Shown: positions 28,413 through 50,174, counted from the first letter of the stretch. The stretch is 64,000 bases of DNA from an uncultured bacterium (GCA_966095605.1 CBHTTJ010000001.1:7906-71905), one strand, 5' to 3'. Made by a program: numbers and translations. Notes: generated from the letters alone by a model not told the origin.

Positions 28413-28500
28413 GCCGGTGTGGCGAAATGGCAGACGCACAGGACTTAAAATCCTGGGACCTTAAACAGTCGTGTCGGTTCGAGTCCGACCACCGGCACCA
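28413..28500 (+). tRNA. tRNA-Leu (anticodon UAA), class II with long variable arm, CCA encoded
   Basis: Acceptor GCCGGTG/CACCGGC. Anticodon stem CAGGA/TCCTG with loop CTTAAAA. Long variable arm. T-arm GTCGG-TTCGAGT-CCGAC. Terminal ACCA. Confidence 0.9.
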
Positions 28501-28665
28501 TCTCTTGATGCTGTAACATCAAGTAATCAGGAGGGTTTCAAGGGTTTACGAACACGCAAACGAACACAATAGGAATGCTTCTTTCATTCGCTTTTCAATT
28601 CGTTGCCGTGCTTGCGCCAAACTTCTTTAACGCGGTGATAAGCGCTTCACTACACTCAAGTTGTT

Positions 28666-29694
28666 ATGAAGACGCGATATTCTCTCGTCTGCCTTTCGAA
28701 TCGCGGTGGCACGTTTTACTCCTTCGATTCCGAAACGAGAAAACGAGAAAGTCTGAACACTAAAGATCGTGCCGAAGCGCAGCGACTCCTCAACGCCAAG
28801 AACGAATCCACTCACAACGCAACGGTCAATTTGCAGCTTGCCCGGGTCTATCTCCAGCACAGCGATCCAGCCATTACCACCCGGACTTGGCAGCACATCA
28901 TGGATGAAATGGCTAAACTGAAGGATGGCCCGACAGCTGATCGTTTTGTCCGCGCAACGAAGGATCAGGCCTTTGATTCCATCCGGAACGTTCCAGCCTA
29001 TTCCACCAAAGCGGAGGACTTTTTACGTGTCCTGGAGAAAGGCGGCGTTTCCACCAATGTTTTTCTCCGTCGGATTCATAACTTCGCTCTTTCGATGACG
29101 TTCATTCCTTTGCCGGTCCTTGTTCCCAGAAACTGGCCGGCCGTTCGATTCGAAGAAAAACGTGCCATTACACTCGACGAACACAGGGCCATTGTGGCAC
29201 GGGAAAATAATCCGGAGGTGAGAGCTTACTACCAGCTTTGCTGGCACATCGGCGGCGCGCAATCCGACGTTGCTGCTCTCAAAGGCGAAGACGTCGATCG
29301 CAGCCAACGGATCATCACCTTCAGCCGCAAGAAAACGAAAGTGCCGGTGATCATCTCCTATGGTGAAGAGCTCGCGCAGATCCTCGCCACACTTCCATCG
29401 ACGGGCCCGCTCTTCCCAACGCTGATCAACTACCACGAGCGGCACCGGTCCGAGATGTTTGCTAGACGCTGCAAGAGCCTGAAGATCGAGAACGTGTCAC
29501 TTCACTCTTATCGCTATTCCTGGGCAGAGCGAGCCAAGCAAGTCGGCTATCCAGAACGGTTCGCTCAACAGGCGCTCGGGCACAATTCCAAGGCTGTACA
29601 TCGAGCTTACGCGAAGAACGCTTTGGTGCGGCTGCCATCGCTCGAAGAATACGAACAAAAGATCGTGCCACTACCGAAAGTCGTGAATGGTTGA
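28666..29694 (+). CDS. int: Tyrosine recombinase / phage integrase
   Basis: C-terminal catalytic region 'HSYRYSWAERA...ALGHNSKAVHRAYAK' (H-x-x-R ... H ... Y) and upstream 'ITLDEHRAIV'. Adjacent to a tRNA gene. Confidence 0.85.
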   Translation: MKTRYSLVCLSNRGGTFYSFDSETRKRESLNTKDRAEAQRLLNAKNESTHNATVNLQLARVYLQHSDPAITTRTWQHIMDEMAKLKDGPTADRFVRATKDQAFDSIRNVPAYSTKAEDFLRVLEKGGVSTNVFLRRIHNFALSMTFIPLPVLVPRNWPAVRFEEKRAITLDEHRAIVARENNPEVRAYYQLCWHIGGAQSDVAALKGEDVDRSQRIITFSRKKTKVPVIISYGEELAQILATLPSTGPLFPTLINYHERHRSEMFARRCKSLKIENVSLHSYRYSWAERAKQVGYPERFAQQALGHNSKAVHRAYAKNALVRLPSLEEYEQKIVPLPKVVNG

Positions 29695-29718
29695 GCGTCT
29701 TGGCAGGAGCCGCACTCG

Positions 29719-30621
29719 TCAGGGGTGCGGCTTGTTGCCCCGCTCAAGCTTGTAGGAGGCGATCTTTTTCTTCCACGCGGCAAGACGTTTCTCGCGGAAT
29801 ACTTCGAACTGTTTTCCTTCGGCCGACTCGATTTCCCTCAATGGCAAAACATTCGTCCAGTCAATGGAGTGCCGCCATGCTAAATTTCGCCCATCTTCCG
29901 ATTCTGAAAATGCCATTATCACTTCAACCATTTTGAACCAGCCTCGAGCGTTCAATTCTTCCACAAGCACGCGCTTCATTACGAAGCGTAAATAGGCCCT
30001 TACGCAAAATACCATTATTCGAAGGTGAGCCACATCGTTCCGACTTTCCTGGTTAATTCGAAGCGCCATGTAGCCCTTCGATTTCAAAAGGGATATAGGA
30101 TCGATCAGCCGAACGATTTTACCTTTCAGCTCGGTGGTAATGGCTGTTTTCTCGATAAGGTCGTTTGCCACGCCAGGAACGTCATTCACGACCTCGATTA
30201 GCGATTCCTCGTCACCAATCTTCAGTGGAATGACCGCTACCAAAGCTGTCATTTCGCGCTTGCTCGGAAATTTCGGCGTCAGCTTCAACTGGGCCGCGAT
30301 GGTTTCCGCTGCTTTGCGATCTCCACGGAAATCAATATCGGCACTGGTAAACGGGCTCAGCGGTAGAAGGTGCTTTTCCTCAGCAGAATAATGTTCAGCC
30401 CAGAAGTTGACCGCTTGGCCACCGATCAGAAGAAAGGGTTTATTTTCGTGATTACGGACGAGGAAAAGAGCTTCGAAATCCCCAATTGAGAATTTAGGCA
30501 TTTGCAAAGGCTGCCAATGATTCTTCCAAATTAGTGATTTTCCATCGGCGCGCGTTGCGAACCAAGCCGTTTTTTCGCTGTATCCGCGCAGCGGCTCGGC
30601 GGCCGGTTTTCGCAATGCCAA
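29719..30621 (-). CDS. Hypothetical protein with nucleotidyltransferase-fold motif (AbiEii-like?)
   Basis: 'FLLIGGQAVNFWAEHY...PFTSADIDF' resembles the hG[GS]...DxD minimal NTase/AbiEii pattern. ~300 aa. Confidence 0.35.
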   Translation of the reverse strand: MALRKPAAEPLRGYSEKTAWFATRADGKSLIWKNHWQPLQMPKFSIGDFEALFLVRNHENKPFLLIGGQAVNFWAEHYSAEEKHLLPLSPFTSADIDFRGDRKAAETIAAQLKLTPKFPSKREMTALVAVIPLKIGDEESLIEVVNDVPGVANDLIEKTAITTELKGKIVRLIDPISLLKSKGYMALRINQESRNDVAHLRIMVFCVRAYLRFVMKRVLVEELNARGWFKMVEVIMAFSESEDGRNLAWRHSIDWTNVLPLREIESAEGKQFEVFREKRLAAWKKKIASYKLERGNKPHP

Positions 30622-30776
30622 TGTCTCGCATGCGAAGAGTCGCTTTACGACGTTTTAGAATGGCAGCTGCGGAGGACATTGGTGTTATACGCTGTATACA
30701 GTTATCTGTTTTTAGCATGACGGTCAAGGTCAAGCCTTGCTCCTAAATTAACACGGGGCACGCGATTATGCATCTG

Positions 30777-31133
30777 CTACGCAGCTTCGGCGGAAGCAGA
30801 TTCGGAAACCTTTGCTGCGCTCTCGGGTGCGGCAGGATGCACGTCGGCACCCGGTCCCTTCTTTCGCTTCTTCCCGTTCTCATGGACGTGCTTTTCAACT
30901 ATCCGCACGGCTTTGTCCAACCATGCCACGTCCTGGCTGAGACGTTCGATTTCCACAAGGGCAAACCACTTGCGAGAATTCTGGGAAGGTTTGCCTAAGG
31001 GTTTTAGATGCCCAACGCGCATGAGCAACGGAATAAAGTAATCGGGCCAGCCGAAAATTTTCGCTGCACGCTCCGCGTCGACACAGGCGGGCATTGCCGC
31101 CGAATTGTAAATTCCTTGTTGTTCGACTCTCAC
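30777..31133 (-). CDS. Small HTH DNA-binding protein (excisionase/AlpA-like)
   Basis: 'CVDAERAAKIFGWPDYFIPLLMRVGHLKPLGKPSQNSRKWFALVEIERL' fits the excisionase-type HTH followed by a wing. Confidence 0.45.
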   Translation of the reverse strand: MRVEQQGIYNSAAMPACVDAERAAKIFGWPDYFIPLLMRVGHLKPLGKPSQNSRKWFALVEIERLSQDVAWLDKAVRIVEKHVHENGKKRKKGPGADVHPAAPESAAKVSESASAEAA

Positions 31134-31822
31134 ACTGTTCCTTTGCCGGTTTTCTCCAACCGATCATCAATACCGTTCTTATTTGCATCCACGAAGCCCT
31201 GTAATTTGCCGTGGCGATGAGCGAGGAACCACCCGCCGACGGCCAGCGCTACAGCACCCAAAATCAAAAGCTCGTTTCCAACGATCAATGTCGGAAGGAC
31301 TATCAATGCCAAGCCACCAACCAGAATTGCAGCGCTGGTGGTCACACTGCCGATGATTGCCCGGAGCGGCGGGTAAAAAAGTGAAGCCAATCCAAAGAGA
31401 AACATCACAACACCAACCCAAACAATGCCTTTCAGACTGGAAAGCTTCGCGCCGATCTCGCGGGCACTGTCTTTCTGGGCGGGACCAAGTTCTGTCTTCG
31501 CTCGCGTTTCCTCGCGTTCGACCACAGGCATTGGCGCATTCACAACAACGGCTTGCACGTTTGTCACTGGTGCAGCGGCCGGCTCGACTTGGATGACGCG
31601 AGTTTCCTCGATGCGGGAACCCGCAGGAACAGTATAGCTCTTCGTTTTCACCGTTTCCTGATCCTGCCGGGAAACCGCCGCGGGATTGTCGCTCTGCACA
31701 AGAGTCTGCTCTACGACGCCAGCGGGCTTCACCGTCGTTGTTGCCTTTCCGCCTTTGAGTGGCTTCGTGGTACTGCAGCCGGTTATCAGGCCGACGATGA
31801 GAATTAGTGCGAGGGATTTCAT
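31130..31822 (-). CDS. Lipoprotein with C-terminal multi-TM region
   Basis: Lipobox 'LIVGLITGC', a Val/Pro/Thr-rich linker, then 3-4 hydrophobic helices ('GIVWVGVVMFLFGLASLFY...'). Confidence 0.55.
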   Translation of the reverse strand: MKSLALILIVGLITGCSTTKPLKGGKATTTVKPAGVVEQTLVQSDNPAAVSRQDQETVKTKSYTVPAGSRIEETRVIQVEPAAAPVTNVQAVVVNAPMPVVEREETRAKTELGPAQKDSAREIGAKLSSLKGIVWVGVVMFLFGLASLFYPPLRAIIGSVTTSAAILVGGLALIVLPTLIVGNELLILGAVALAVGGWFLAHRHGKLQGFVDANKNGIDDRLEKTGKGTV

Positions 31823-32112
31823 TTCGAGTCTTTCTTCTGTTGTTGCTCCATCAAAATTGTGATGCGGTCGACGGTTCGGGCCAGCAGCGCCTGATTTTCG
31901 CTAAGCGTGTCCATGCTCCTCTTCAAATCTCGACGTTCTTCGATTGTGTAGCTTTGTCGCAACTCCACGGCCGTCAGGCGTTTGTCCATGTTCGTCCAGA
32001 GCGCAATGAGAGCGCCTGCCATGGAGACCAACTGCAATACATTGCCGAGAGTGATCTCGGGATTGAACTTCAACTGGCGCGTGCCGTTGTTCTTGAAAAT
32101 AGGATCGTCCAT
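31819..32112 (-). CDS. Small single-TM coiled-coil protein
   Basis: 97 aa from the ATG at 32112 ('MDDPIFKNN...'). TM 'TLGNVLQLVSMAGALIALW' followed by a heptad-like region. The longer listed ORF (to 32541) is rejected. Confidence 0.45.
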   Translation of the reverse strand: MDDPIFKNNGTRQLKFNPEITLGNVLQLVSMAGALIALWTNMDKRLTAVELRQSYTIEERRDLKRSMDTLSENQALLARTVDRITILMEQQQKKDSK

Positions 32113-32132
32113 AAAATTTTGTGGCCAGTCTG

Positions 32133-32651
32133 CTAGGACCGGATCAGCGGCACTGCGCCGCTTTTGCTTTTCACTAACGCGCCAAACTTCGCCAGCATTG
32201 CCTGGGCAACATGCGAGAGGATCGGGCGCACATCGGTTTTGCTGTAGCCGGTCTGGTTGGGACCAACGTTGAGGTATTTCAGGCCTTCCCCTGGAGGAGC
32301 TCCTGTTCGATCGGCAACCAAAAGCTCCCGCGCCATTTCGCATGTCGCGTCCAGGAGTTCTCTCGGGATCACGTTCGATTCCACGTACGCTCCTAGGTCT
32401 GGATCCGGACACGTCCGACGCGGCCACTGCAAAGCTTGGGTGTCCGTTGCTTTGAAACCGGCGAAGCGCATCTGTGAATCGATCAATCTCGTTGCCATGA
32501 CGAGCGCGGCCTCCTTGTTCCCGGCGCTCGCGGCGCTCCAAGCCGTGGCGTAAAGATGCCCTTCATGGTACGCGTCACCATCGGCAGCCGAGGCGTATGC
32601 ATTCGCATCGACCTTTCCGGTTCCGTCTTCTTTAACGATTACCAGCGGCAT
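32133..32651 (-). CDS. Phage head-tail adaptor / DnaT-like domain protein
   Basis: 'KVDANAYASAADGDAYHEGHLYATAWSAASAGNKEAALVMATRLIDSQMRFAGFKATDTQALQWPRR' matches the pattern of phage DnaT-like/head-completion proteins. Confidence 0.55.
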   Translation of the reverse strand: MPLVIVKEDGTGKVDANAYASAADGDAYHEGHLYATAWSAASAGNKEAALVMATRLIDSQMRFAGFKATDTQALQWPRRTCPDPDLGAYVESNVIPRELLDATCEMARELLVADRTGAPPGEGLKYLNVGPNQTGYSKTDVRPILSHVAQAMLAKFGALVKSKSGAVPLIRS

Positions 32652-32943
32652 TTTTAAAATTCGGGATCTTTATCCAGTTATGACTGCGAAACATTTGTGG
32701 TCCTGTTGCTTCGCACCGGCACCAGAGCTCTCCATCCAGTTCGTAAAGGAACCGTACGACGTAACCATCACCTTTCGGGCCGCGATAAACGTCGACAGCA
32801 CGGGTCAGTGTTCCGCGCCCGTCGAGCGGACATTCCACGAACGCGCTCGGCTCGACCTTCGTGATTCCGTCTTGAGCACCGGCGACGCTCGACAGTTCGC
32901 CTGTCGATTTTTGATTTGCTTCCGCGAAATTCGGGTTCATCAA
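32632..32943 (-). CDS. Hypothetical phage protein
   Basis: 103-aa ORF in the head-gene operon, overlapping both neighbours (ATGA at 32940-32943). Confidence 0.45.
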   Translation of the reverse strand: MMNPNFAEANQKSTGELSSVAGAQDGITKVEPSAFVECPLDGRGTLTRAVDVYRGPKGDGYVVRFLYELDGELWCRCEATGPQMFRSHNWIKIPNFKNAAGNR

Positions 32944-33665
32944 AACTCCTCCAAGGGAAGTCCTGCACCGTCGTTGTACAGCGCGGTGATCTCATCGGCG
33001 CTCAGAACACGATTCCACTTTGCGACTTCATCGATCGTGCCGGTGAATGGATAGCCGGCTTCGTGTGCACCGATTCGAAACATTTCCCCAACGCGAGGAT
33101 ATCCGGCTACATCGGTCTGGATGGCAGGTTCTCCATTGTCGATGATGAGCCCAACGGTGTTGCCACTACGGTAGAAAACTAAATGATGCCATTGATCTGG
33201 AGTCACATCGGCATTGCCGGCGAGCCAGAGAATTGTATTCCCGTCTGCGTCGTACATGACCAGGTCGAGTGCATGGCCGAAAGTGACCAGATACACACCA
33301 CCCGTTGAGTTGAGCATGGTGTCGGAACCGAAGATCGGTTCGAGCTGATAAACCCACAGGGACATTGTGAAATCCGCATCGAAACGCAGAAGCGGATGAT
33401 CAGGATGATCGAGCCAGCGATCATAACCGACATAGCTGGTTTCGGCTCCGTTTCCGAAGATGCCGCCTTCCTGTCCAACGCCATTGTTGTCCGTCAGATC
33501 CAATCCGTTTCCGGAAGAATCCAAACGCATTTGTCCCGGTCCCTCCTCAAGCTTCCAATACGCGACGAGCCCATCGAGCAAGGAGACCTCGACGGTTTCC
33601 GGTGGCCGAACCGTCGTCGCACGATTGCGACGACGCTTCGCCAACTGGAGAATCTCGAACGCCAC
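32940..33665 (-). CDS. LamG / concanavalin-A-like lectin domain protein
   Basis: 'GLVAYWKLEEGPG...LDSSGNGLDLT' and C-terminal 'GTIDEVAKWNRVLSADEITALYNDG' are hallmark Laminin_G_3 motifs. The proposed GTG start at 33665 is uncertain. Confidence 0.6.
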   Translation of the reverse strand: MAFEILQLAKRRRNRATTVRPPETVEVSLLDGLVAYWKLEEGPGQMRLDSSGNGLDLTDNNGVGQEGGIFGNGAETSYVGYDRWLDHPDHPLLRFDADFTMSLWVYQLEPIFGSDTMLNSTGGVYLVTFGHALDLVMYDADGNTILWLAGNADVTPDQWHHLVFYRSGNTVGLIIDNGEPAIQTDVAGYPRVGEMFRIGAHEAGYPFTGTIDEVAKWNRVLSADEITALYNDGAGLPLEEF

Positions 33666-33669
33666 GCGC

Positions 33670-33954
33670 TTACGCGCCAGGTTCCACGGTCTTCCGGGAC
33701 TTTTCTTCGGCAGCTTTTGCACGTTTTGCTTTCGCGGGTGTAACAGTTGGTTTTTGTTCCGGTAGAACCGCAGTTGATACGTCCGGCTCTGGAACCTGAG
33801 GCGCTTGGGGCGCAACGGGCTCGGCCGGTGATTGTATGACAGGCCTTTCCTCGACTTGTGGTTGAACCTCTGGCACAGCAGGCGGGGTGGCCGTCGGCAA
33901 AGCCTCAGGAGGCAGCAATGGCCTCCGAACACGACGAATGATTGGGTAAAGCAT
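33670..33954 (-). CDS. Pro/Ala/Val-rich small protein
   Basis: From the ATG at 33954 ('MLYPIIRRVRRPLLPPEALPTATPPAVPEVQPQ...KAKRAKAAEEK'). Its stop lies 5 nt before the candidate LamG start. Confidence 0.35.
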   Translation of the reverse strand: MLYPIIRRVRRPLLPPEALPTATPPAVPEVQPQVEERPVIQSPAEPVAPQAPQVPEPDVSTAVLPEQKPTVTPAKAKRAKAAEEKSRKTVEPGA

Positions 33955-33958
33955 AGGT

Positions 33959-34393
33959 CTACTTGATGCGAAAGAATTGAATACCTGTGCGTATGCCGAC
34001 GACGCCGCCGCGATTCGCCGTGTTATTGGAGGCATTGATATAAATTCTTCGCGGACTGTTAATCGTGTGGATTCGGATGAATTCCTGTTCCCACTCGGCA
34101 TTTGCCAAGGGAACTTTAAGTAGCGCTGTGTCGCCGATCTCCAATTCTTGTTCAACGTCGATCAGCGCATAGGTGATGACGTCGCCAGCCTGAAAGTTGC
34201 CGGCAAAGTGAATGCGGCCGAGCAGCAAATACGTTCCAGGATCCTCCAGGCGCACAGAGCAAGGTGCATTGCCAATGCCAAGGGCAATGGGTTCTAGATT
34301 ATTGTTAAGGGCCTGCGGACCCCAATTCATACCGGCGCTTGCAGCGATGCTCGGCGTAAAACTGCAGGAACTGCGTGGAATGATTTTTCCCAT
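33959..34393 (-). CDS. Hypothetical phage structural protein (downstream of capsid gene)
   Basis: 144-aa beta-rich ORF immediately after the major capsid gene. Confidence 0.45.
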   Translation of the reverse strand: MGKIIPRSSCSFTPSIAASAGMNWGPQALNNNLEPIALGIGNAPCSVRLEDPGTYLLLGRIHFAGNFQAGDVITYALIDVEQELEIGDTALLKVPLANAEWEQEFIRIHTINSPRRIYINASNNTANRGGVVGIRTGIQFFRIK

Positions 34394-34465: not shown

Positions 34466-35476
34466 CTAGTTGTTATGGGTAATCGCGACGAGGCGGACGT
34501 TTTTGTTTTCCCAGACACGCGCCCAGTTCGCGCCGTTCTCCAACTCTGCATTCGTCGGCGAGTCACCAGCGACCGCAGCGGAAGTGAACTTCACACCACG
34601 CGGATGCAGGATATAACGACGGCGATTGATCAGAACGGTATCGCTATCGAGCGGCACACGCGCGAGTTCGACGCCTTCAGTGCCGTGACCGCCCTGGAGC
34701 GGAGTGCCGTCCAGCGGAGCGACACCTTTGCCAAAAGCCCCAGAGCCGAAGAGATAGGTCGTGTAAACTTGGCCATCAGTCGTTCCGGCACGAACGGGCA
34801 ATGAATCATCCACGATCACACGGCGACCTTGGAACACACGAAGCATCGGTTTTCCTTCGCTGTCCGGAATGAAATCGATGAGATCGAGTTTGCGAAGCGC
34901 TGCTTCGGTTGCCGAATGCATCGCGACAGCCGTGAGGCGATCAGCGGCGTCACCGAGTTTTGTGCAAGCGTCGACGAACGTCGCGCCGTTTAGCCGTGTG
35001 GCAGCGCTCTGTCCGACTATCGTCTCGGAATTGATGCCGAGGAGGTTTCCAGCCATCGAACCCGCCGCGAAAATGCCTTTAAGCGACGAGATGACGATGC
35101 CTTCGTCGGTACGAGCCCAGTAATCGCCGACCAGGTCGACGATCGCTTGCATCGGATCATCGCCAGAAATGACTTTGGCGAGATGGTTCACGGACCAGAC
35201 CTGCGCATCGTTATGGATGCGTGCGATGTCCTGATCAGCGGCGATCTTGTTCACGTTGAGTGAACCAGCGTCGCTCAAGATTTGGCGTGCTGCCGTGAGG
35301 TCCTTCCAGAACGGCATCTTTACTTCGCGTCCACCGCCTGCCGCGAGTTCGTCGAACTCTGGCGCCATCTCAACGATGCCGGACTGTCCGAAACGGGAGA
35401 GCTCTGCGGTACGCTCGATAGCGTATTTCTCGAACTCTGTTGGAATGATGATGTCTGCTACTGCTGTCTTGGCCAT
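34466..35476 (-). CDS. Major capsid protein (HK97-fold type)
   Basis: 336 aa. 'MAKTAVADIIIPTEFEKYAIERTAELSRF...' N-terminus and overall pattern typical of phage coat proteins. Sits after the scaffold and portal genes. Confidence 0.7.
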   Translation of the reverse strand: MAKTAVADIIIPTEFEKYAIERTAELSRFGQSGIVEMAPEFDELAAGGGREVKMPFWKDLTAARQILSDAGSLNVNKIAADQDIARIHNDAQVWSVNHLAKVISGDDPMQAIVDLVGDYWARTDEGIVISSLKGIFAAGSMAGNLLGINSETIVGQSAATRLNGATFVDACTKLGDAADRLTAVAMHSATEAALRKLDLIDFIPDSEGKPMLRVFQGRRVIVDDSLPVRAGTTDGQVYTTYLFGSGAFGKGVAPLDGTPLQGGHGTEGVELARVPLDSDTVLINRRRYILHPRGVKFTSAAVAGDSPTNAELENGANWARVWENKNVRLVAITHNN

Positions 35477-35503: not shown

Positions 35504-36268
35504 TCAGGCGGCAGCTTTCAAGCGTGCAGCGAGCTGAGGATCGGTTTTCTGTAGTTTCATTTGTTCGGTCAGGTTCCACGTCTCACGCTTGAACGGGTTC
35601 TTCACCGAAGGCAGCGTTCTCGCAGAGCTGCTGGCAGCACCGCCGCCAGAGTTGGATTCGAAAAGATGCGGAGCTTCGGACACTTGCGTATCGATCCACT
35701 CCTCTAAAGTCATTGGTGTAATGCCGTCTTTGCCGTAACGCACGGTCTTGCCGCCGCCCTCGAAAGCCGTTGGCACACCGTTCACGAGACGGAACACTGA
35801 ACGAGCGCGGGATGTGATGTCAGGAATCGCTGTAGGGCGGAGACCACGCTTCGTCGCCACAGTGGTCACTCCCTGGTCGATCTGGATCGTTGTGAGGCGT
35901 GCATTGAGCGCGTCACGTTCACTCGTAAGACCCGTGATTTGCTTCTCCCACTCGGTCTTGAGTGACTTCACTCGGTTCTCGATGATCTTCTCGATTTCCT
36001 CGGGCTTGTGGCCCTTCGCTTCGAGTTCGAGTTTCTGTTTCTCTTCAGCGAGGCGACGCACTTCGTCAGGATCAATGCCGTCAAAGCGTTTCTTGAGATC
36101 GTCACGTTCTTTGATCAGAGCGACGTTGTTGTTGCGAAACTCGTCGAGTTTCGTTTTGTCGACGGCACCATCGACGTCGAGGAGCCAGGCTCCATCGCGT
36201 TCGACGTAAAGCGATTGTTGTTCGGCAGGAATTTCTTCCCGCGATTTGAATTTGTATTTCAGTGGCAT
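35504..36268 (-). CDS. Phage scaffolding protein (GP20-like)
   Basis: Highly charged coiled-coil N-terminal half ('DLKKRFDGIDPDEVRRLAEEKQKLELEAKGHKPEEIEKIIENR'). Lies between portal and capsid. Confidence 0.6.
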   Translation of the reverse strand: MPLKYKFKSREEIPAEQQSLYVERDGAWLLDVDGAVDKTKLDEFRNNNVALIKERDDLKKRFDGIDPDEVRRLAEEKQKLELEAKGHKPEEIEKIIENRVKSLKTEWEKQITGLTSERDALNARLTTIQIDQGVTTVATKRGLRPTAIPDITSRARSVFRLVNGVPTAFEGGGKTVRYGKDGITPMTLEEWIDTQVSEAPHLFESNSGGGAASSSARTLPSVKNPFKRETWNLTEQMKLQKTDPQLAARLKAAA

Positions 36269-42237: not shown

Positions 42238-42403
42238 TCGCAACAACTCAAGCCGCCGCAAAAAATCGCGGCGGCTTCGCCGCGTACGCAGCTCAGCCGC
42301 AAAACATTTTTCTGGGCCTCCTGCCGGCCCAGACCCGCACGCCAAAGGCAATGCCTCTGGACGCCGCTGAGGCCAATTGGAATGCCAGTGAGCGATTGAC
42401 CGG

Positions 42404-43177
42404 ATGACGCATCTTTCGTGTAATCAGACGCATCGTATGGCCATATTACAGACTCGAATCTTTGCAAAGCACACAGAACCCTGGGATTGGGCTGAAACAC
42501 TCATTGGACGTGTTTTGAAACCTTTGACGAGAGAATACTGCAGCCAATTGGAATGGTTTTGGTTCTCTCGCTACGTATGCCAAATTGGTATGGCAGGTGA
42601 AGATAAAGGAGACTGCGATTTCGACAGCATCCCGCAGATTTTCAAAGGCCATTTCCCTCAGACCAGCATAGCAGGCCACCGGAGTCTCCGATTTCGTTTT
42701 CAACTCGACGATGAAGTTAAAGATCAGTTTGAACAGCGTCTCCGCGAGCTCTTGGCTACCTTTGACTATGCGATTTCCGATGTAAGGTCTTACGACGAGG
42801 TCGCTGACACTGGTAGCGAGAGATTTCTGGGTGCCGAAAATGCACTTTCGAACCGAGCGCCAGTCCGTGCCCGCCTGGTGACTCAGATCTATCACACCAC
42901 GAGCCAGCTGCTTTTGGACACGTTGGTTGGCCCAGATGCAGATGGTCGCTATCGCGTCGAAAACAACGAACTTAGAAATCAGAATCCTAACGGATGCACT
43001 TTTGAATCCGTCCATCATGTGTTCTGTAATATCTCATCAGTGCCCACATCTATTCTATTTCGCAACCAAGCAGGGCAACAATCGTTGCATGGCACTTACT
43101 GGGGCAAACCAAGAGGCTCCAGAGACATTTCAAGTTCGAACGGCGAAACGTTCACGGAAGTTTACATACCATACTGA
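42404..43177 (+). CDS. Hypothetical protein with SpaB_C / thiopeptide-type bacteriocin biosynthesis domain-like motifs
   Basis: 'LEWFWFSRYV', 'HRSLRFRFQL' and 'SYDEVADTGSERFLG' resemble the wFFxRY / HLRLR / YxPExxRYGG landmarks of Lant_dehydr_C. Confidence 0.35.
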   Translation: MTHLSCNQTHRMAILQTRIFAKHTEPWDWAETLIGRVLKPLTREYCSQLEWFWFSRYVCQIGMAGEDKGDCDFDSIPQIFKGHFPQTSIAGHRSLRFRFQLDDEVKDQFEQRLRELLATFDYAISDVRSYDEVADTGSERFLGAENALSNRAPVRARLVTQIYHTTSQLLLDTLVGPDADGRYRVENNELRNQNPNGCTFESVHHVFCNISSVPTSILFRNQAGQQSLHGTYWGKPRGSRDISSSNGETFTEVYIPY

Positions 43178-43210
43178 GTCGTACCACACATCAAAGGAAC
43201 AACGTTCAAT

Positions 43211-44638
43211 TTATACACCCCTCAACTTCCTTTGCGTAATCGCGCGCGTCTTCGTTGCAACCAGGTAACGAAACGCATCCGCGGCATCATCCCCGCCAGC
43301 CCCATCTTCATCCGCGTCGACTTTCAGAACATCTTCGGGCCTGTTCGGGTCATGCTGAAGTGACGGAAGTGATTCGAGCAACCGCGCACAACGCCGATGA
43401 ATGAACAGCGTCGGCCTGATGCCTGCGTCTACATCGCCGAACCGCTGCAAAATTTCCGCCCACCCGTTGATCCGGTCCGTGTTCGCACAGCGCAAGGTGA
43501 TACCTTGCCGCGCATACTGCGCCGCGACGGTAGTTCCGTCGCTCTGTTTGCTGAACACGTCCGCGCCCGCCACAAACCGTTTCAAATCTGAAATCTCTAA
43601 TGGCCGCGTCTGCCCATTGGCCATTTGCAATCGGCTATTGGCTATGCGCCGCCGTCCGACCATAGCCTTGATTGCCTCCGCATGCCGCTGTGGCAACCAA
43701 AGCCTTTGCGCATGTTCATCGACAATGAAAATGTTCCCATCGCCATCCGTGCAACCAAGCAGGCAAACGGTGTAATGCGTGAACCCGTAATCCAAACCGG
43801 CAAACCATTCGCGCGCGCGAGTGTCGTCGAAATCGTCGATCACATGCACATCACGACGAAACGTCGTGAAGAACTGGCCAGCCGCAATGTCCCAATCGCC
43901 ATCAAACCACGCGCGTTTCTGCCACCCCGTTAAATTCGCCAGGACTTTCGTGTATTCCGGATTGTTGAAACGATTGCCGCCGACTTTTGCGGGAACGAAA
44001 CGCGTCTCCCTTTCGCGACCTTCCGCAAACGGCACGATGAACTTCGCTCGATACCAGGCATGACCGATCCCACCCGGGTTTGTGGTCGAATAGATCCTCG
44101 GCCGCCAATTCGGCTTCGATGTTCGGCAACACGTCGAAATATCCTGATGCTTCCGCGACGACAACGTCGTCGCTTCCTCGATCCCAATCACGTCGTATTC
44201 CAACCCAAGGTAAGCATCGATGTCCTTTTCGGCCTGAAAGTGCCCGGCAATGATCCGCGAGCCATTGGAAAAGGACAGCACACCTCGATAAGCCGAGAAC
44301 TCATGGCTCAAGTTGCCGAATAACCGCCGCCGCAGATCCTCAAAGTTCTCCATGTTCGCTTTTCCAACTTTGCGCAAAAGCAAACACTTCAGTCCAGGCA
44401 CACGCTGACAATCATCCGCCCCCATTTGTGCGAGCAACCAATGCGACTTCCCACCGCCGCGCGCGCCGCCGTATCCGACTGCCGTCGGTCCGTCGGCGCG
44501 ATCACACAGTCGAGCGGCCGCACTCGCCATGAGTTGCCGTTCCTGAAGCACAATGTTCGCCCGTTCGAAATTGTGCATTTGATCCTTCGGACAGCCCGCC
44601 CGCCGTCCGACGTAGAAGTAACGTTCCCAAGGCGTCAT
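43211..44638 (-). CDS. terL: Phage terminase large subunit
   Basis: Walker A 'GGARGGGKSHWLL', 'VIGIEEAT' Walker B-like, C-terminal nuclease-region acidic motifs. 475 aa. Confidence 0.8.
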   Translation of the reverse strand: MTPWERYFYVGRRAGCPKDQMHNFERANIVLQERQLMASAAARLCDRADGPTAVGYGGARGGGKSHWLLAQMGADDCQRVPGLKCLLLRKVGKANMENFEDLRRRLFGNLSHEFSAYRGVLSFSNGSRIIAGHFQAEKDIDAYLGLEYDVIGIEEATTLSSRKHQDISTCCRTSKPNWRPRIYSTTNPGGIGHAWYRAKFIVPFAEGRERETRFVPAKVGGNRFNNPEYTKVLANLTGWQKRAWFDGDWDIAAGQFFTTFRRDVHVIDDFDDTRAREWFAGLDYGFTHYTVCLLGCTDGDGNIFIVDEHAQRLWLPQRHAEAIKAMVGRRRIANSRLQMANGQTRPLEISDLKRFVAGADVFSKQSDGTTVAAQYARQGITLRCANTDRINGWAEILQRFGDVDAGIRPTLFIHRRCARLLESLPSLQHDPNRPEDVLKVDADEDGAGGDDAADAFRYLVATKTRAITQRKLRGV

Positions 44639-45204
44639 TTCGGCACCTCAACCTGTTTTACCTCCACGTCGACGATCTCGGCGGGCAACGGTTGCCCATA
44701 AATTTTGTCCAGCGCCACCGCGACCTCCACACGAACCGTCGGCAAATCATCGCCTTTCCGCTTGTCACCATCGCCAAGGCCTGTTGCCAATCGGCCCAGC
44801 TTGCTGGCGATCTCCAGCATCCGAGCAATATCGGAGAGGTTCGCATAAACCTTTTCCCTCGCCATGAAAGCAGCCAACCCGCGTTTCGCTGCACCAATCG
44901 CTTCGCGGTGCAGTTCCCATTCTTCTTCTCGCAATTCCTGTTCGCGCTTTTCCCATTCAGCCGCCTTGCCACGGGCAGCGGCTTCCATCGCTTCGCGTTC
45001 CACCATGGCGAGATGCGCACCATGCGCAGCCAATCTGGATTGCCAGTCGTATTTTGCAGACCAGCGCTTCACCAGCTGTGCACTCTTGGACAACTTTTGG
45101 GCTACCTCCGCAATGGATCTTTCCGGCCCAAGACTTAAATAAAGGGAAAAGGCAGCAAACGCTTTTTCAGACTCTCTGGGTTGTTGTTCAAACGGTAACG
45201 GCAT
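44635..45204 (-). CDS. Terminase small subunit-like HTH protein
   Basis: Start at the ATG at 45204 ('MPLPFEQQPRESEKAFAAFSLYLSLGPERSIAEVAQKLSKSAQLVKRWSAKYDW'), then a coiled coil. 4-nt overlap with terL. Confidence 0.55.
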   Translation of the reverse strand: MPLPFEQQPRESEKAFAAFSLYLSLGPERSIAEVAQKLSKSAQLVKRWSAKYDWQSRLAAHGAHLAMVEREAMEAAARGKAAEWEKREQELREEEWELHREAIGAAKRGLAAFMAREKVYANLSDIARMLEIASKLGRLATGLGDGDKRKGDDLPTVRVEVAVALDKIYGQPLPAEIVDVEVKQVEVPK

Positions 45205-45350
45205 AAGTCTCCTTGTGAGCACTGACAGGGCAATTCCAACGGCAGTGAGGAAGGGAAACCCGACCTCAGGGAGGGTTTCTCCTTCCACTGCCTGTTTACC
45301 TATATAGGTGCATATATCTATATAAGGATGTTGCACTCCTGCACTTCGTA

Positions 45351-46391
45351 TCATTCTGCCCTCCAGTACAGGCCTCCACCGGACCGAATCAGTCCGGCTT
45401 CAGTTAATCTTTCGAGATAATTCGCGGTAGTTCGTCGGCTCATCCCCAGTCCGGCTTCGGCATCCCGCACCACGGCCGTAAACGGCTTTCCTTTGTCGCC
45501 TAAAACTGTGTCGATGAACTCCTTATCTGAGCAGATTTTGTTTTTCGCTTGTGGACGCCTGAGCGCACCGGGATTCAAATCTTTCGCAATCCGCATCAGC
45601 GGAAACTCCCAGGACACGACGAATTCAGGCAGTTGCGGCAGGTTGCGCAGGATCGAGGTAACAGTGAAACAGTTCTCCTCCTCGTGAGGTGTCAGCACAA
45701 CGATGCTGTCCGGATCACGCGCCCAGGCACCGGCTCCACTCATACGATCCAGCGCACTCTTGCTCGTGCTGTCTCCTTTCGCGAAATGATGTGCCACCAC
45801 GATCGAAGCTCCGGAACTCTGCGCCATCGCTTCCAGCTCATTCATGAGCCCGGCAATCTCGCCGTTCGCATTTTCGTCACGATCGCCAAGCACCTTGTAT
45901 GCAGGATCGAGGATGATGAGCCCGAACTGATGTCGTTCCAGTTGCTGCTCCAGCTTCGGTCGCAATGTCGTCAAATCCGCGTTCTTCCCACGCAAATTCC
46001 ACACGGCCAAGGTCTCACCGAGGCCTTTGCACTCCGGTCGGCCGGAACAAATCGCATTGATCCGTTGTCCGAGCGCCCAGTCGTGCAGTTCGAAATTGAT
46101 GTAAACCACCGGCATTTTCGTGCATTGCCGTCCCCACCACGGCTGACCGCTGGCCACGCTGACCGCCAGATCGAGCAGGCACCATGACTTGTTTGATTTT
46201 GAAGTGCCGCCCAGAATCATTTTGCACCCTTGATGCAGGATTCCTTCGATGATTTGAGGCGGTGGCGCAGGAACATCCGCAGCGAAGTCCCGCAAAAACT
46301 GAATTTCCGGCAAAGGCGCCGGCTCAATCTTGAAAGCCACCGCGATGTCGACCTGTTCGGTTGAAGGCTTCATGTGTTGTCCCGCAACCAA
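45351..46391 (-). CDS. RecA-like (AAA_25/RepA-type) replicative NTPase with C-terminal wHTH
   Basis: P-loop 'ILGGTSKSNKSWCLLDLAVSVASGQPWWG', Walker B 'FGLIILDPAYK', C-terminal 'MSRRTTANYLERLTEAGLIR'. Confidence 0.55.
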   Translation of the reverse strand: MVAGQHMKPSTEQVDIAVAFKIEPAPLPEIQFLRDFAADVPAPPPQIIEGILHQGCKMILGGTSKSNKSWCLLDLAVSVASGQPWWGRQCTKMPVVYINFELHDWALGQRINAICSGRPECKGLGETLAVWNLRGKNADLTTLRPKLEQQLERHQFGLIILDPAYKVLGDRDENANGEIAGLMNELEAMAQSSGASIVVAHHFAKGDSTSKSALDRMSGAGAWARDPDSIVVLTPHEEENCFTVTSILRNLPQLPEFVVSWEFPLMRIAKDLNPGALRRPQAKNKICSDKEFIDTVLGDKGKPFTAVVRDAEAGLGMSRRTTANYLERLTEAGLIRSGGGLYWRAE

Positions 46392-47365
46392 ATGACTTTT
46401 TGAAGTTTCCCTTCGCGCCAGGCACCCGGCACACGAACGGGTTGCGAATACGTAAAGACCTTCGGATCACACCCAAAGACGACAAGGCCCGCCTTCAATC
46501 GCTCTTCAAACAGTTTGTTTCGCGGCGCATCAAACCACGCATGCAGCGATTTGCCCCCCGTATCGATGATGCAATGCAGCCGATACTTCAGCCGCCTGCG
46601 CAAATACGCGAACACAGCCCCGACCTGGTCTTTTCCAAGAGTGTCCGATTCAATGACCATGAACCGGTATCCCTCGAGGTTTTCATTCGTCCTGCTGTGG
46701 CTCCCCGGTTTGAATGCCGAACCACAGGTGAAGTTCCCAAGGGCGGGACCGATTTGATACCATTCCGGAATCGGCCGGAAATGCGTCCGATGCTCCGGTC
46801 TACCGGAGCTATAAAGGTCACCGATCCAAATGTGACAATGCGCCGGCCAAAGTTTCAGCCAGGTGCGGAACTGGTCTTCGGGATCTCGCTCGCTCACCTG
46901 CAAAGGCGAATCCTGCAAAATCTGCTCAACCGGCCAGCGAAAGACTTCAAACAACTCAGGCTTAAATCGTTCTGCCTTGGCCCTTACCATCTCGAGCACA
47001 ACCGCTTCGTTCGGCATCTCCCCGGCAAACTTCGCGCCCAACTCAGCCTCAGCTCGCGAAATCACGCACCCGTTCGATTGCAAGACATCGCCACTGCGCA
47101 GCACGTCTCCACTCGGAAGCTGCAGTTCCCACGGCGTCGCGCCAAGTTCACGCCGGAAACGTCGGTTGACCTCCTCCACGGCAGCAACACAGGAGGCATG
47201 AAAGCAATAGATCGTCGGAGCGCCATCGAGGCTGACCCGACAATCCTTTTTCCCGGTTCGCATCGTGTGCAAGGCTTCACCTGGGCAATGACAAAAGCCG
47301 GTGAGTTCGTTTTGCCAATCGATAGCGCCAAGAATTCCCGCAGCAATGTGACGTGGATCTCTCAT
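46370..47365 (-). CDS. Primase-polymerase (AEP-like) with N-terminal zinc-binding motif
   Basis: 'CHCPGEALH...CRVSLDGAPTIYCFHASC' Cys/His cluster. 'FMVIESD' and 'IIDTGGKSLHAWF' resemble AEP motifs I and II. Confidence 0.45.
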   Translation of the reverse strand: MRDPRHIAAGILGAIDWQNELTGFCHCPGEALHTMRTGKKDCRVSLDGAPTIYCFHASCVAAVEEVNRRFRRELGATPWELQLPSGDVLRSGDVLQSNGCVISRAEAELGAKFAGEMPNEAVVLEMVRAKAERFKPELFEVFRWPVEQILQDSPLQVSERDPEDQFRTWLKLWPAHCHIWIGDLYSSGRPEHRTHFRPIPEWYQIGPALGNFTCGSAFKPGSHSRTNENLEGYRFMVIESDTLGKDQVGAVFAYLRRRLKYRLHCIIDTGGKSLHAWFDAPRNKLFEERLKAGLVVFGCDPKVFTYSQPVRVPGAWREGKLQKVIWLRDNT

Positions 47366-47632: not shown

Positions 47633-48427
47633 TTAGGCCGCAAGTTTCAGAGGTGCGCTCGGGTCGTAAGCTTTCTCGATGATCCACAAGCGCCGCGCCG
47701 CTTCGAAAGCTTCCACGCCCCGTTCGATCTCTTCTTCTGTCCAAAGATGTTCCACCGGAGCGGAAACTTCTTTCGAGTTCACGATGAGATTCATGCAACG
47801 CACCGGCTGGCCGAGCGCTTTGCGATACGCGGCGAGTTGATACGCCCAAGATTTGTAAGCCGTCGCTTTCGCGCCAGGCTTCACGCCTTGGGTTTTGATG
47901 TCGACGAGCGTCAGCCCATGCTCGGTATGTTCGATCAAGAGATCGGCCGTGCCGGCGAACCCGAGCTCGCCATGCACGAGCACTTTCTCGGTCCAAACCA
48001 GCTTCGCTGCTTTCGCCTGATACCAATCTCGATACAGATGCAGCCACGCTGCCGCCGGGTGTTGCGGATCCACTTCGAGTGTGTTCGCAATGCGTTCCGC
48101 ACCGTGATGAAACGCCGTGCCGAAATCGGCCGCGCCATCACGTGTCGTGAGCGAATCCGAGACGACGCGTTTTGCAAACGCATCTTCGGTTTCGCCTGCG
48201 ATGCGCGGCAAAGTCAGGGCAGCAAGCACCGCTTGCTCCTGTAACCACGATGTCAGTTCCGGCTTCGCGATCACACCAATGATGTTCGTGACACTCGGGA
48301 CAAGGTTCAGCTTGCGCGCATCGCGCAGCGTCGTTGCACGCGCTTCGCCTTTCAGCGAAAGTACCGTGTGCATCGCGACTCCGTCGCGTCCGTACCAATG
48401 AGCTGCATCAGGAGAAAATAATTTCAT
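47633..48427 (-). CDS. PD-(D/E)XK exonuclease (YqaJ/Cas4-like recombination nuclease)
   Basis: 'GTAFHHGAE' and 'FAGTADLLIEHTEHGLTLVDIKTQ' give the D...(D/E)xK core. Confidence 0.6.
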   Translation of the reverse strand: MKLFSPDAAHWYGRDGVAMHTVLSLKGEARATTLRDARKLNLVPSVTNIIGVIAKPELTSWLQEQAVLAALTLPRIAGETEDAFAKRVVSDSLTTRDGAADFGTAFHHGAERIANTLEVDPQHPAAAWLHLYRDWYQAKAAKLVWTEKVLVHGELGFAGTADLLIEHTEHGLTLVDIKTQGVKPGAKATAYKSWAYQLAAYRKALGQPVRCMNLIVNSKEVSAPVEHLWTEEEIERGVEAFEAARRLWIIEKAYDPSAPLKLAA

Positions 48428-48475: not shown

Positions 48476-49114
48476 TTAGAATCCGACTTCGGGATCGTAG
48501 TCGGGCTTGGGCGCCGGAACCGGCGCGACACTTTTGGACGGTGCCGCCGATGCGCCGGAACGAACTCCCTCTCCGCTCTGGGGAGAGGGTTGAGGTGAGG
48601 TGCGCGCCGTAGGCGCATTGTGTGCAGCCTGCGGCTGCTGTTTAACCTTCCATTCCGAAATCCTTTGCCGCGCCGCCGCTGGATCGTAAGAGCCCGAAAG
48701 CTGAATCTTCTTCGTAGGCTTGCTGACGGCATCGATCGCCGCGTAAGTGCGACCTTGCATGTTCTGTTGATGCGAAATGACCAGCGTGCAGCAAGCGCCG
48801 ATCAATTTGCCGAGATCGATCGATTCACCTGGCATCACCGGGCGACCGCGCCATTTGCCGAGGAACTCAGCGAGCTTCGCTTTCGGATGCAGACTCGCCG
48901 TAAAGTTTTTCGTGATGCTGAACGGGCGGCCATCTTCCATCTTCAGCTCGGTTTCGAATGAAACTTTCAGCTTTTGGACGTTTCGTTTCTGGCCTTGGAA
49001 CTCCGTTTCCACCATGCCCAGGTCAATCACGTCATTGCAGATCGCGACGTAAATGCCTTCAGGATGCGGTTTGAAGTCACTGGTTTCTTTGCATTGCAGG
49101 ATGATGTTACTCAT
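48476..49114 (-). CDS. Phage ssDNA-binding-like protein (DUF669-like) with SSB-type disordered tail
   Basis: N-terminal beta-rich domain ('PEGIYVAICNDVIDLGMVETEFQGQK'). Pro/Gln/Ala-rich linker ending in the acidic-aromatic tip 'PDYDPEVGF'. Confidence 0.4.
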   Translation of the reverse strand: MSNIILQCKETSDFKPHPEGIYVAICNDVIDLGMVETEFQGQKRNVQKLKVSFETELKMEDGRPFSITKNFTASLHPKAKLAEFLGKWRGRPVMPGESIDLGKLIGACCTLVISHQQNMQGRTYAAIDAVSKPTKKIQLSGSYDPAAARQRISEWKVKQQPQAAHNAPTARTSPQPSPQSGEGVRSGASAAPSKSVAPVPAPKPDYDPEVGF

Positions 49115-49125
49115 AGTTTTTGTTC

Positions 49126-49569
49126 TTATTTTTCTGTTTTGTTTTTTGTTTCTGTTTCTTTGTTTTTCGAAGACAGCTCGTCGGCCACATCGGCCTTTGC
49201 TGTCGGAAATTCTTTCGAGTCAACCGCGGGAAAGGTGGCGAATCCTGATGGCACAGAGACGTCGCCACGGAGCAGTCGGAAAAAGGTTTGGGAGTCCATG
49301 GTGACCAACCACGGGCGGAAATTGCGTTTGTGCGCGAGAATTGGCACTTTGCCGGTTCCGTCACGGCGCGCCTGATCCATCGCGTCCTCGATGTTCAGCC
49401 GTTCCACGGCTTTGACCTCGAAGTGGATCCAACTCAGTTGCTCGCAAACGACATCCGGCGATTCCGCCGAGCCTGAAAACTGCTGACCACGACGGGCTGC
49501 AAATCCGTTCTCGCGCAATTCATCGCGCCATTGCCGTTCACCGCGTTTACCTTTTTCCCGTGAGTTCAT
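49126..49569 (-). CDS. Holliday-junction resolvase-like PD-(D/E)XK endonuclease
   Basis: Start at the ATG at 49569 ('MNSREKGKRGERQWRDELRENGFAARRGQQFSGSAESPDVV...HFEVKAVERL'), the typical phage resolvase pattern. ATGA overlap with the upstream gene. Confidence 0.55.
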   Translation of the reverse strand: MNSREKGKRGERQWRDELRENGFAARRGQQFSGSAESPDVVCEQLSWIHFEVKAVERLNIEDAMDQARRDGTGKVPILAHKRNFRPWLVTMDSQTFFRLLRGDVSVPSGFATFPAVDSKEFPTAKADVADELSSKNKETETKNKTEK

Positions 49570-49907
49570 CGCGAACCGCCTTTCGCGGTAGCCGCGGGTG
49601 CCGTACCTGTGGCAGGTGTGCCAACACCCCGACCAGCTCGGCAATGTTGCGAAAGGTGCGTTTCGACTTCGCTCCACTTGAAGGCAACCCGGCTGCCGAT
49701 CTTGAAGAACGGGATCAGCTTCCGCTTCATCCAGTTATCCAGCGTGCGCAGGCTGCAACCGAGGCGCTTAGCGACTTCTGGCTTCCCGATGTAATCCTCC
49801 GGTTCAGCGGCTACGGCCGTTACACTGATTGAGGAAACCGGCCTCACGGACACGATGCGTCCAGGAGGGGAAATCAGTCCGGGTCGGTTAATAATTGGCG
49901 TCTTCAT
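49566..49907 (-). CDS. HTH DNA-binding protein (excisionase/AlpA family-like), first gene of the minus-strand phage operon
   Basis: 'KPEVAKRLGCSLRTLDNWMKRKLIPFFKIGSRVAFKWSEVETHL' is a classic HTH_17-type motif. Confidence 0.6.
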   Translation of the reverse strand: MKTPIINRPGLISPPGRIVSVRPVSSISVTAVAAEPEDYIGKPEVAKRLGCSLRTLDNWMKRKLIPFFKIGSRVAFKWSEVETHLSQHCRAGRGVGTPATGTAPAATAKGGSR

Positions 49908-50012
49908 TTCGTTTGCACCGGGCCAATCACTGGATCAGCCCTATACAAACGGAGGGGTGGTCAAAAACTTTTGGAGGCACGCCAACAAAGCCCAATGAAG
50001 ACAGGCGGTTTA

Positions 50013-50048
50013 GCCATTTTGACCAGGTCAAAAAAAGGTCAAAATGGC
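50013..50048. promoter_or_regulatory. Operator-like inverted repeat upstream of the phage-element HTH gene
   Basis: GCCATTTTGACC (50013-50024) / GGTCAAAATGGC (50037-50048) is a perfect 12-bp IR. A third GGTCAAAA copy sits in the spacer (50026-50033). Confidence 0.45.
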
Positions 50049-50174
50049 CGCAAACTCCTTACTGAATGAGAACGAATTGACTTTCGCCGCAGAGAACCCA
50101 AACTCGTCGCCGTAGATGTTTAGGAAGGGATTTCCTGAACACCTCTAGATTCGCCCCATCGGCCCAAAACAAAG

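Follow-up and report, generated by a model that had tools for sequence, protein, structure and literature searches.

A tail-less, capsid- and terminase-encoding integrative element family of Verrucomicrobiota, probably of capsid-forming satellites

A 64,000-nt stretch of DNA from an uncultured bacterium (GCA_966095605.1 CBHTTJ010000001.1:7906-71905; hereafter the window, with positions counted from its first letter) carries, beside a tRNA-Leu(UAA) gene, an integrated element with its own phage head and packaging genes. We find it to be an intact representative of a large and hitherto undescribed family of Verrucomicrobiota integrative elements that encode capsid and terminase but no tail. This combination of a capsid of its own with the lack of a tail is a conserved trait of the family and argues for a satellite-type lifestyle; we think it probable, with considerable room for doubt, that these are capsid-forming satellites which work like cf-PICIs (phage-inducible chromosomal islands that form capsids) and arose independently of them. 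The initial annotation of the window had offered a capsid-forming satellite or a decayed prophage: the tail-less capsid element is supported, whereas plain decay is disfavoured and the element is not a cf-PICI proper.

A conserved head module and no tail

The head and packaging genes named in the initial annotation (TerS, TerL, portal, scaffold, major capsid protein and head-tail adaptor) were all confirmed by PHROG and Pfam profiles (Table 1), at E-values far beyond chance; for the element's own TerS, TerL, portal and major capsid protein, PHROG E-values run from 1e-21 to 5e-119, and the Walker A motif GGARGGGKS is visible in the TerL sequence. A gp6-like portal, gp11-like scaffold, gp13-like capsid and gp15-like adaptor stand in the order of SPP1, and the capsid shares 44-49% identity with its counterparts in SPP1, phiFL3A and related siphoviruses, which makes the head module one of the SPP1 type. 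TerL is unrelated to theirs at close range (~29-30% identity, 30% at most, to deposited phage terminases among the matches listed). SPP1-like siphoviruses also have a stopper, a tail-to-head joining protein, a tube, tape measure, tip and lysis genes, which are missing here after the adaptor; the 2 kb or more of non-coding DNA that separate TerL from portal, in turn, set the present element apart from them. The LamG and adaptor genes were rightly placed after the capsid at first, whereas the order of the small open reading frames (ORFs) had to be corrected: the capsid is followed by the 144-aa ORF, LamG, the 103-aa ORF, the adaptor Ad1, the 97-aa membrane ORF, the 230-aa lipoprotein, and the 118-aa and 300-aa ORFs.

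Pfam and PHROG scans of the ORFs in the interval gave no match to a tape measure, tube, sheath, baseplate, endolysin or holin, which upholds the first impression that tail and lysis genes are lacking, with the caveats of a C1q/TNF-like knob and two membrane proteins (see below). The ORFs of 29719-34393, likewise, have no tail or lysis profile, yet the knob fold at 33959-34393 is one also met at fibre tips. That the PHROG scan is able to detect tails follows from a distant relative (L160), in which it recognises, directly after the adaptor, genes for a tail terminator, a tail protein, an assembly chaperone, a tape measure and a tail assembly protein. We then considered 30 family loci in which Ad1 is at least 48% identical and is followed by 5 kb or more of sequence. 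In a single one of them, the 8 kb that follow Ad1 include a same-strand ORF of 700 aa or longer, and there it lies beyond the flanking tRNA-Leu; the same test was positive in 9/10 more distant Ad1 relatives from IMG/VR. The post-Ad1 ORFs of the family loci are of host type (S1/P1 nuclease, sulfatase, glycoside hydrolase, ABC transporter, peptidase S13), and the set that marks a complete tailed prophage (terminator, tube or sheath, chaperones, tape measure) is absent here as in 29/30 loci.

The core genes of the window copy are full-length and matched end to end by profiles. Against family homologues, the ratio of nonsynonymous to synonymous substitution rates (dN/dS) is 0.06 for the capsid, 0.07 for TerL, 0.13 for portal and for scaffold, and 0.16 for Ad1, with dS saturated at ~2; since dN/dS is low and dS saturated, the tail-less state is old and has been kept by selection. 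Among the head genes tested, dN/dS is highest for Ad1, consistent with the finding that in cf-PICIs, which release tail-less capsids that dock onto the tails of different phages, it is the adaptor and connector that set tail specificity (de Sousa et al. 2023; He 2025).

The family is large. A capsid search of GTDB genomes returned 52 loci at 57-98% identity, almost all labelled Verrucomicrobiota/Limisphaerales (Planctomycetota-Verrucomicrobiota-Chlamydiota, PVC, group), with 2-3 copies of the element in several carrier genomes, such as the three in the complete genome OY969763.1, and a TerL search of JGI metagenomes returned at least 385 relatives. To judge from these relatives the host of the window would be a member of Verrucomicrobiota, in line with the PVC-type host first suggested. 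Some carrier bins (L016, L026-L028, L040) are labelled Bifidobacterium, Bifidobacteriaceae or Hyphomicrobiales; mis-binning is the likely cause, and spread across phyla the alternative. By tblastn synteny, the conserved order begins with the 389-aa and 328-aa genes, a variable interval, the xis-like helix-turn-helix (HTH) gene, resolvase, initiator, exonuclease, primase-like gene and AAA_25 gene, and continues with TerS, TerL, a variable gap, portal, scaffold, capsid, a second variable interval, Ad1, the 97-aa, 230-aa and 118-aa genes, integrase and tRNA. In some relatives the replication module is swapped or the integrase lies at the other end. The tRNA genes that relatives border on are those of tRNA-Thr, Cys, Met, Leu(CAG) and Leu(CAA), the integrase being found beside tRNA-Thr or tRNA-Cys in family members. 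One locus (L037) has two family copies head-to-head, their integrase ends adjacent and no tRNA detected in between.

ARAGORN and Rfam agree on a single tRNA gene in the window, tRNA-Leu(UAA), and the integrase starts 165 nt downstream of it, much as first described (a tyrosine integrase within 166 nt; PF00589, phrog_1). The right end originally placed at 50050, giving a unit of 21 kb, was wrong: synteny with relatives identifies the genes at 53168-55360 as the conserved leading genes of the family, so that the end lies beyond 55360 and the element spans at least 27 kb (at least 28.5-55.4 kb). An element larger than supposed might have proved to include a tail module, yet no tail gene was found. 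In one relative, host genes directly abut the 389-aa leading gene. When 28400-28680 was aligned locally against the remainder of the window, and exact 12-mers and 18-mers with at most 2 mismatches were sought, no attR copy of the tRNA 3′ end was found within the window, only chance-level matches such as an 11-mer at 60223 inside a coding ORF; the attR is either beyond 64000, very short, or lost.

Table 1. Features of the element and adjoining genes, in order along the window
Feature	Position	Strand	Basis
tRNA-Leu(UAA), integration target, attL side	28413-28500	+	ARAGORN; Rfam RF00005, 60.4 bits
Tyrosine integrase, 342 aa, convergent with late operon	28666-29694	+	PF00589; phrog_1 E 8e-26
300-aa ORF, cargo of this copy only	29719-30621	-	absent from relatives
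118-aa ORF beside integrase	30777-31133	-	adjoins int in 13 loci
230-aa lipoprotein, three C-terminal transmembrane helices	31130-31822	-	alignment of homologues
97-aa protein, one transmembrane segment and coiled coil, directly after adaptor	31819-32112	-	alignment of homologues
Head-tail adaptor Ad1, SPP1 gp15 type	32133-32651	-	phrog_477 E 6e-34; PF20557 (DnaT_2) E 6e-29
103-aa ORF before adaptor	32632-32943	-	homologues at same position in L035, L064
LamG (concanavalin-like) protein	32940-33932	-	PF13385 E 3e-19
144-aa C1q/TNF-like jelly-roll knob	33959-34393	-	AlphaFold2 (AF2) pLDDT 86; Foldseek against PDB and BFVD
Major capsid protein, SPP1 gp13 type	34466-35476	-	phrog_247 E 1e-91
Head scaffolding protein	35504-36268	-	phrog_206 E 4e-40
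Portal	36278-37765	-	phrog_145 E 5e-119; PF13264 (DUF4055)
Conserved unit upstream of portal: ~150-nt motif (38160-38315) and long hairpin	37941-38315	-	alignment; inverted repeat
358-aa cargo ORF	38319-39395	+	absent from relatives
Structured RNA domain 2, ~200 nt, approximate extent	40130-40325	-	66 predicted pairs, 29 compensatory
Structured RNA domain 1, 334 nt, TerL/portal sense	40343-40676	-	covariation; covariance model
136-aa ORF	41038-41448	+	at same position in many relatives
DUF6573 protein	41492-41893	+	PF20213 E 1e-19; at same position in many relatives
136-aa ORF (second)	41827-42237	+	opposite-strand cargo block
257-aa ORF	42404-43177	+	opposite-strand cargo block
TerL	43211-44638	-	phrog_2 and phrog_979, E 1e-22
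TerS	44635-45354	-	phrog_6299 E 3e-21
AAA_25 helicase-like NTPase	45351-46391	-	PF13481 E 1e-30; phrog_2597 E 3e-52
Primase-like protein	46370-47365	-	phrog_2597 E 4e-4, sole and weak match
PD-(D/E)XK exonuclease	47633-48427	-	profile scans
NGO0469-family phage replication initiator	48476-49114	-	NF046043, 123.6 bits
RusA-like/PDDEXK_15 resolvase	49126-49677	-	profile scans
HTH_17/excisionase-family protein (TIGR01764)	49566-49907	-	profile scans
Second cargo insertion: EACC1-domain protein, 178-aa ORF, 261-aa multi-HTH_17 protein	50458-52655	+	PF19953, PF12728
328-aa protein, conserved leading gene	53168-54154	-	syntenic upstream of xis/rusA in at least 10 loci
389-aa RdgC-like protein, conserved leading gene	54191-55360	-	syntenic upstream of xis/rusA in at least 10 loci
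XRE-HTH and M78 (ImmA/IrrE-like) regulator, divergent	55653-56744	+	PF01381, PF06114

A capsid-forming satellite and its rivals

Judged by the membership features given for cf-PICIs (de Sousa et al. 2023; He 2025), the element resembles EcCIEDL933 and KpCIDSM30104 in being an island with a recombinase at one end (the integrase, PF00589 and phrog_1), with its own replication genes, TerS, TerL, portal, HK97-fold capsid and head-tail adaptor (phrog_477), with no tail module, holin or lysin (the two membrane proteins being the caveat), and with hotspots for accessory or defence genes; in both a DNA-filled, tail-less head needing foreign tails would be expected, here from the genes alone. Several defining features of cf-PICIs fail, however, and we therefore suggest an independent origin rather than membership of that family. 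Cf-PICIs are HK97-type with a prohead protease, whereas here the head is SPP1-type and no prohead protease was matched, the scaffold (phrog_206) standing in that position; they carry HNH and connector genes, of which neither was recognised here (for HNH, no match among the ORFs scanned at 28.6-55.4 kb); and they measure ~10-18 kb against at least 27 kb. As candidate counterparts of the AlpA/MerR-type regulator and the primase-replicase of cf-PICIs, the element has the HTH_17/TIGR01764 protein, and the AAA_25 NTPase with the primase-like protein and the NGO0469 initiator. Unlike them, the present element has a phage-like recombination set (exonuclease, resolvase, RdgC-like protein), an integrase and leading regulators at opposite ends, a Verrucomicrobiota host and a structured RNA in its packaging module. 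Classical PICIs with the Staphylococcus aureus pathogenicity islands (SaPIs), and the marine VEIMEs (integrative mobile elements that are encapsidated in virions), are also integrative, helper-exploiting islands, but they are much smaller and encode no major capsid protein, whereas a complete head is encoded here; VEIMEs, which have no capsid genes, have been seen in marine Verrucomicrobia.

If these are satellites, the element in its place at tRNA-Leu would probably be kept silent by the divergent HTH-M78 regulator, a candidate master repressor that presumably belongs to the element. Upon induction, as the gene content suggests, it would be excised by the integrase and small HTH proteins and replicated by the NGO0469-type initiator with the primase-like/AAA_25 pair; its own procapsids would be built on the scaffold, and its own DNA packaged by its own terminase. 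Closure of the portal by the Ad1 adaptor would then yield DNA-filled, tail-less heads which, by analogy with cf-PICIs, may be infectious only after docking onto the tails of a co-resident or co-occurring tailed phage, whose lysis functions they would use.

The same genes could instead be the decaying remains of an SPP1-like temperate siphovirus whose tail and lysis modules are gone. The more distant relatives with the same adaptor are indeed complete tailed phages, which suggests that the head module descends from tailed phages; no attR is detectable in the window; and 27+ kb plus a missing 10-15 kb fits an SPP1-sized genome. Yet a defective prophage does not explain why the identical tail-less layout recurs in 29/30 informative loci, why at least six kinds of tRNA gene are abutted (including the tRNA-Leu(UAA) of the window), with several copies per genome, or why inactivating mutations are not seen, the core genes of the window copy being intact and dN/dS staying at 0.06-0.16 with dS saturated, which shows long-term purifying selection after the tail-less state arose. 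These observations largely refute the plain-decay version, and we consider a defective prophage very unlikely. A domesticated or co-operative system, like a gene transfer agent (GTA) or a split prophage, would draw its tails from a dedicated locus elsewhere in the same genome; GTAs do use dispersed loci, and a tail locus in trans may lie outside the loci inspected. Against this stand the element's own integrase, excision-type HTH proteins, replication module and terminase, and its variable cargo, multiple copies and different tRNA targets, which are traits of a selfish element, making such a system improbable.

It is also conceivable, if unlikely, that no helper is needed, and that the adaptor, C1q-like knob, LamG protein and two membrane proteins replace a canonical tail in an autonomous virus or particle. 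The fold of the 144-aa knob occurs at the tips of viral fibres and in minor tail proteins, and the lipoprotein, a hallmark of the family with 50-84% identity between loci and relatives numbering in the thousands, lies with the transmembrane/coiled-coil protein in the late operon after the adaptor. However, a bacterial virus with an HK97 fold but without a tail is not known; homologues of a nozzle, needle or ejection protein were not found; and Ad1 adaptors such as SPP1 gp15 serve to receive further neck or tail proteins. Most family members, moreover, lack the knob and LamG genes, which therefore cannot be the essential delivery device.

Several points weigh against the satellite reading that we prefer to these alternatives. 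Helper dependence, induction, packaging and tail theft are inferences, and no helper phage was identified. The element, being 27 kb or longer, exceeds typical satellites in size, and its module for replication and recombination is as large as that of a phage. As no attR repeat lies in the window, this copy is only presumably mobile, and no head-closure (connector) match of the Hc1 type was found there with Pfam or PHROGs, an Hc1-like gene following Ad1 in one relative only (L023). As to packaging in viromes, a capsid-pattern scan of IMG/VR confirmed only 3 loci, and an adaptor-profile scan a few more close relatives. The 97-aa and 230-aa membrane proteins, furthermore, could have lysis or entry functions that would lessen helper dependence.

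Capsid-forming satellites were described only in 2023, and almost only from Proteobacteria and Firmicutes, cf-PICIs having been found in these two groups (de Sousa et al.). We found no paper describing the present element family and no capsid-encoding satellite of Verrucomicrobiota in the literature searched, which agrees with the initial remark that satellites are essentially undescribed in this lineage. If our reading is true, the same strategy, that of keeping the head and packaging motor and stealing only tails, arose independently from an SPP1-type, scaffold-dependent phage ancestor, in hosts of a poorly cultivated PVC phylum that is common in soils, peat and lakes. Considering that some of the variable cargo clearly serves defence, and that defence genes lie within or next to family members (Druantia-type, AbiE, apparent BREX, Pycsar/KAP; see below), the family may be a major vehicle of defence-gene exchange in Verrucomicrobiota. 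A further-reaching proposal, which we hold to be fairly unlikely, is of an independent, phylum-wide class of satellites always possessing a TerL-portal non-coding region of at least 2 kb, whose large multi-domain RNA acts in head assembly, packaging or late control; a bolder variant has the conserved lipoprotein and transmembrane proteins making the particles tail-independent.

A structured RNA between TerL and portal

The single minus-strand gene train of ~20 kb first described is in fact broken between TerL and portal by a block of 5.4 kb (37766-43210), with five plus-strand ORFs and ~1.6 kb without credible ORFs, the G+C-rich stretch of 39400-41000 being without any. This gap is a family feature: it measures at least 2.07 kb in 42/42 loci with both anchors (range 2.1-8.6 kb), and no convincing ORF is found in the shortest of them. 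Within it, and as part of the late region, comparative alignment predicts an unclassified structured RNA, strongly supported by covariation. Its domain 1 is homologous to a block ~100 nt past the TerL stop codon in minimal relatives and comprises, in a 12-sequence alignment, six helices with 83 pairs, of which 36 show compensatory changes. The cells of the alignment are paired in 94.8%, against 85.0±0.7% when shuffled (0/500 reach the observed value) and 30-45% with partners slid. A covariance model of the central domain scores 142.9 bits on the minus strand of the window and detects a single copy in each element at ~44 loci, without exception in the sense of TerL, the sense score being 4-6x the antisense score wherever an antisense match was reported; several positions are conserved G·U pairs. 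Domain 2 adjoins domain 1, and further stable, conserved hairpins, including the 37941-38130 inverted repeat, lie closer to the portal.

No match to the RNA was found in Rfam 15 at the gathering threshold or at E<=1, by which a group I or II intron, a hammerhead, GOLLD and ROOL were ruled out. Protein coding was ruled out by stop codons in all frames across homologues, and the opposite strand by the 4-6x lower model score and by the G·U pairs, which would turn into A·C. GOLLD and ROOL, large ornate RNAs of bacteria that are often linked to prophages, are similarly covarying, multi-helix RNAs of several hundred nt in phage-like elements, and the phi29 packaging RNA (pRNA) shares the position with packaging genes but no sequence or architectural match. 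Candidate roles are in read-through or stability of the late operon, or in assembly or packaging. Located between TerL and portal, the RNA allows a direct test of whether a large non-coding RNA is linked to virion production; were it to function in assembly, packaging or late control, it would represent a new class of ornate RNAs connected with virion morphogenesis.

Upstream of the portal lies another conserved unit, a ~150-nt motif with a hairpin of ~170 nt whose arms are a perfect 24-nt inverted repeat (37941-37964/38107-38130). The motif has no RNA covariation in the alignment of relatives, and the ORFs within it look like low-complexity translations; coding sequence, promoter and protein-binding site are all candidates. 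The unit is duplicated in several relatives (those listed being L011, L014, L051, L006 and L010).

Replication genes, surface proteins and cargo

Profile searches confirmed several of the early-region assignments, namely the RecA-like NTPase, now an AAA_25 NTPase (PF13481 E 1e-30), the PD-(D/E)XK exonuclease, and the HTH regulator and resolvase-like nuclease, now of the HTH_17/excisionase and RusA-like/PDDEXK_15 families. The protein taken for a single-stranded DNA-binding (SSB-like) protein is instead a replication-initiation protein of the NGO0469 family (NF046043, 123.6 bits), and the archaeo-eukaryotic primase (AEP) nature of the primase-like protein could not be confirmed, its one match being weak (phrog_2597 E 4e-4). 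The AAA_25 and primase-like proteins are encoded by two separate genes in relatives too. Homologues of the leading 328-aa protein have weak Pfam matches to sigma-70 region 4 and HTH_30, and the AF2 model of the 389-aa protein (pLDDT 84.7) matches RdgC in Foldseek with moderate TM-scores; PDB sequence and profile searches gave no match for the primase-like and 389-aa proteins. This leading pair is also seen in a host-flanked island of ~5 kb without head genes (L145/L146, 10001-15164), which may be a remnant or a separate minimal element. In IMG/VR sequences of 35-38 kb (L054-L058), the resolvase, initiator, exonuclease and AAA_25 protein are found at 30-46% identity without the head genes in common, which suggests that the replication module is exchanged with other phages.

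Between the capsid and Ad1, in a region that varies among relatives, lie the 144-aa and LamG genes, absent from most family members. The best structural matches of the 144-aa protein are TNF and C1q domains and the receptor-binding domain of a cyanophage short tail fibre, followed by viral proteins of the BclA-like and collagen-like kinds and by numerous others of 140-180 aa that stand alone; a PDB sequence and profile search gave no match. Its predicted model suggests that it is probably a trimeric surface protein, and it and the LamG protein probably serve in decoration of the head surface or adhesion and not as tail parts. The true start of the LamG gene is probably internal, near 33760, since relatives align only from residue 58.

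In the 230-aa lipoprotein the lipobox Cys is invariant and the C-terminal half highly conserved across homologues, and its identity between loci is 50-84% against 59-75% for the portal. It has 2769 cluster representatives, none of them named, with no Pfam domain on those listed, and roles in lysis, superinfection exclusion or entry are possible. Neither it nor the 97-aa protein matched the PDB, and the 97-aa protein had no profile match either. The 118-aa protein, without a match in the profile libraries, is a putative excision or DNA-binding factor, and the 300-aa ORF had no Pfam, PHROG, PADLOC, NCBIfam or PDB match.

Cargo varies at three hotspots: between TerL and portal, between the 328-aa gene and xis, and distal to the 389-aa gene. 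At the first of these, the 358-, 257- and 136-aa ORFs had no match in PADLOC, Pfam, PHROG or NCBIfam, and the DUF6573 protein and its 136-aa neighbour may be akin to the products of plasmid leading-region or anti-defence genes. At the second, the region of 50.0-53.1 kb is a second cargo insertion, given that the leading genes lie beyond it and that this interval measures only 0.2-1.4 kb in relatives; with its EACC1 (effector-associated constant component) and multi-HTH_17 proteins it possibly represents a cassette for conflict or defence. To the right of the element, 56761-63151 encodes a KAP-family NTPase, a DUF4238 protein, three cyclase-like genes, one with a weak PycC match, and a PycTM effector; this looks like Pycsar, and is either cargo of the element or a neighbouring island. 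Elsewhere in the family, a relative from a JGI metagenome, both ends of which are found on one 62-kb contig, has a DruA-containing (Druantia-type) operon after the leading genes, with AbiEii/DUF6088, an HNH/McrA-like gene and an integrase upstream, and another locus (L093, 1-4950) has upstream two large ORFs (821 and 690 aa) that, by sequence, appear similar to BREX PglZ and BrxL.

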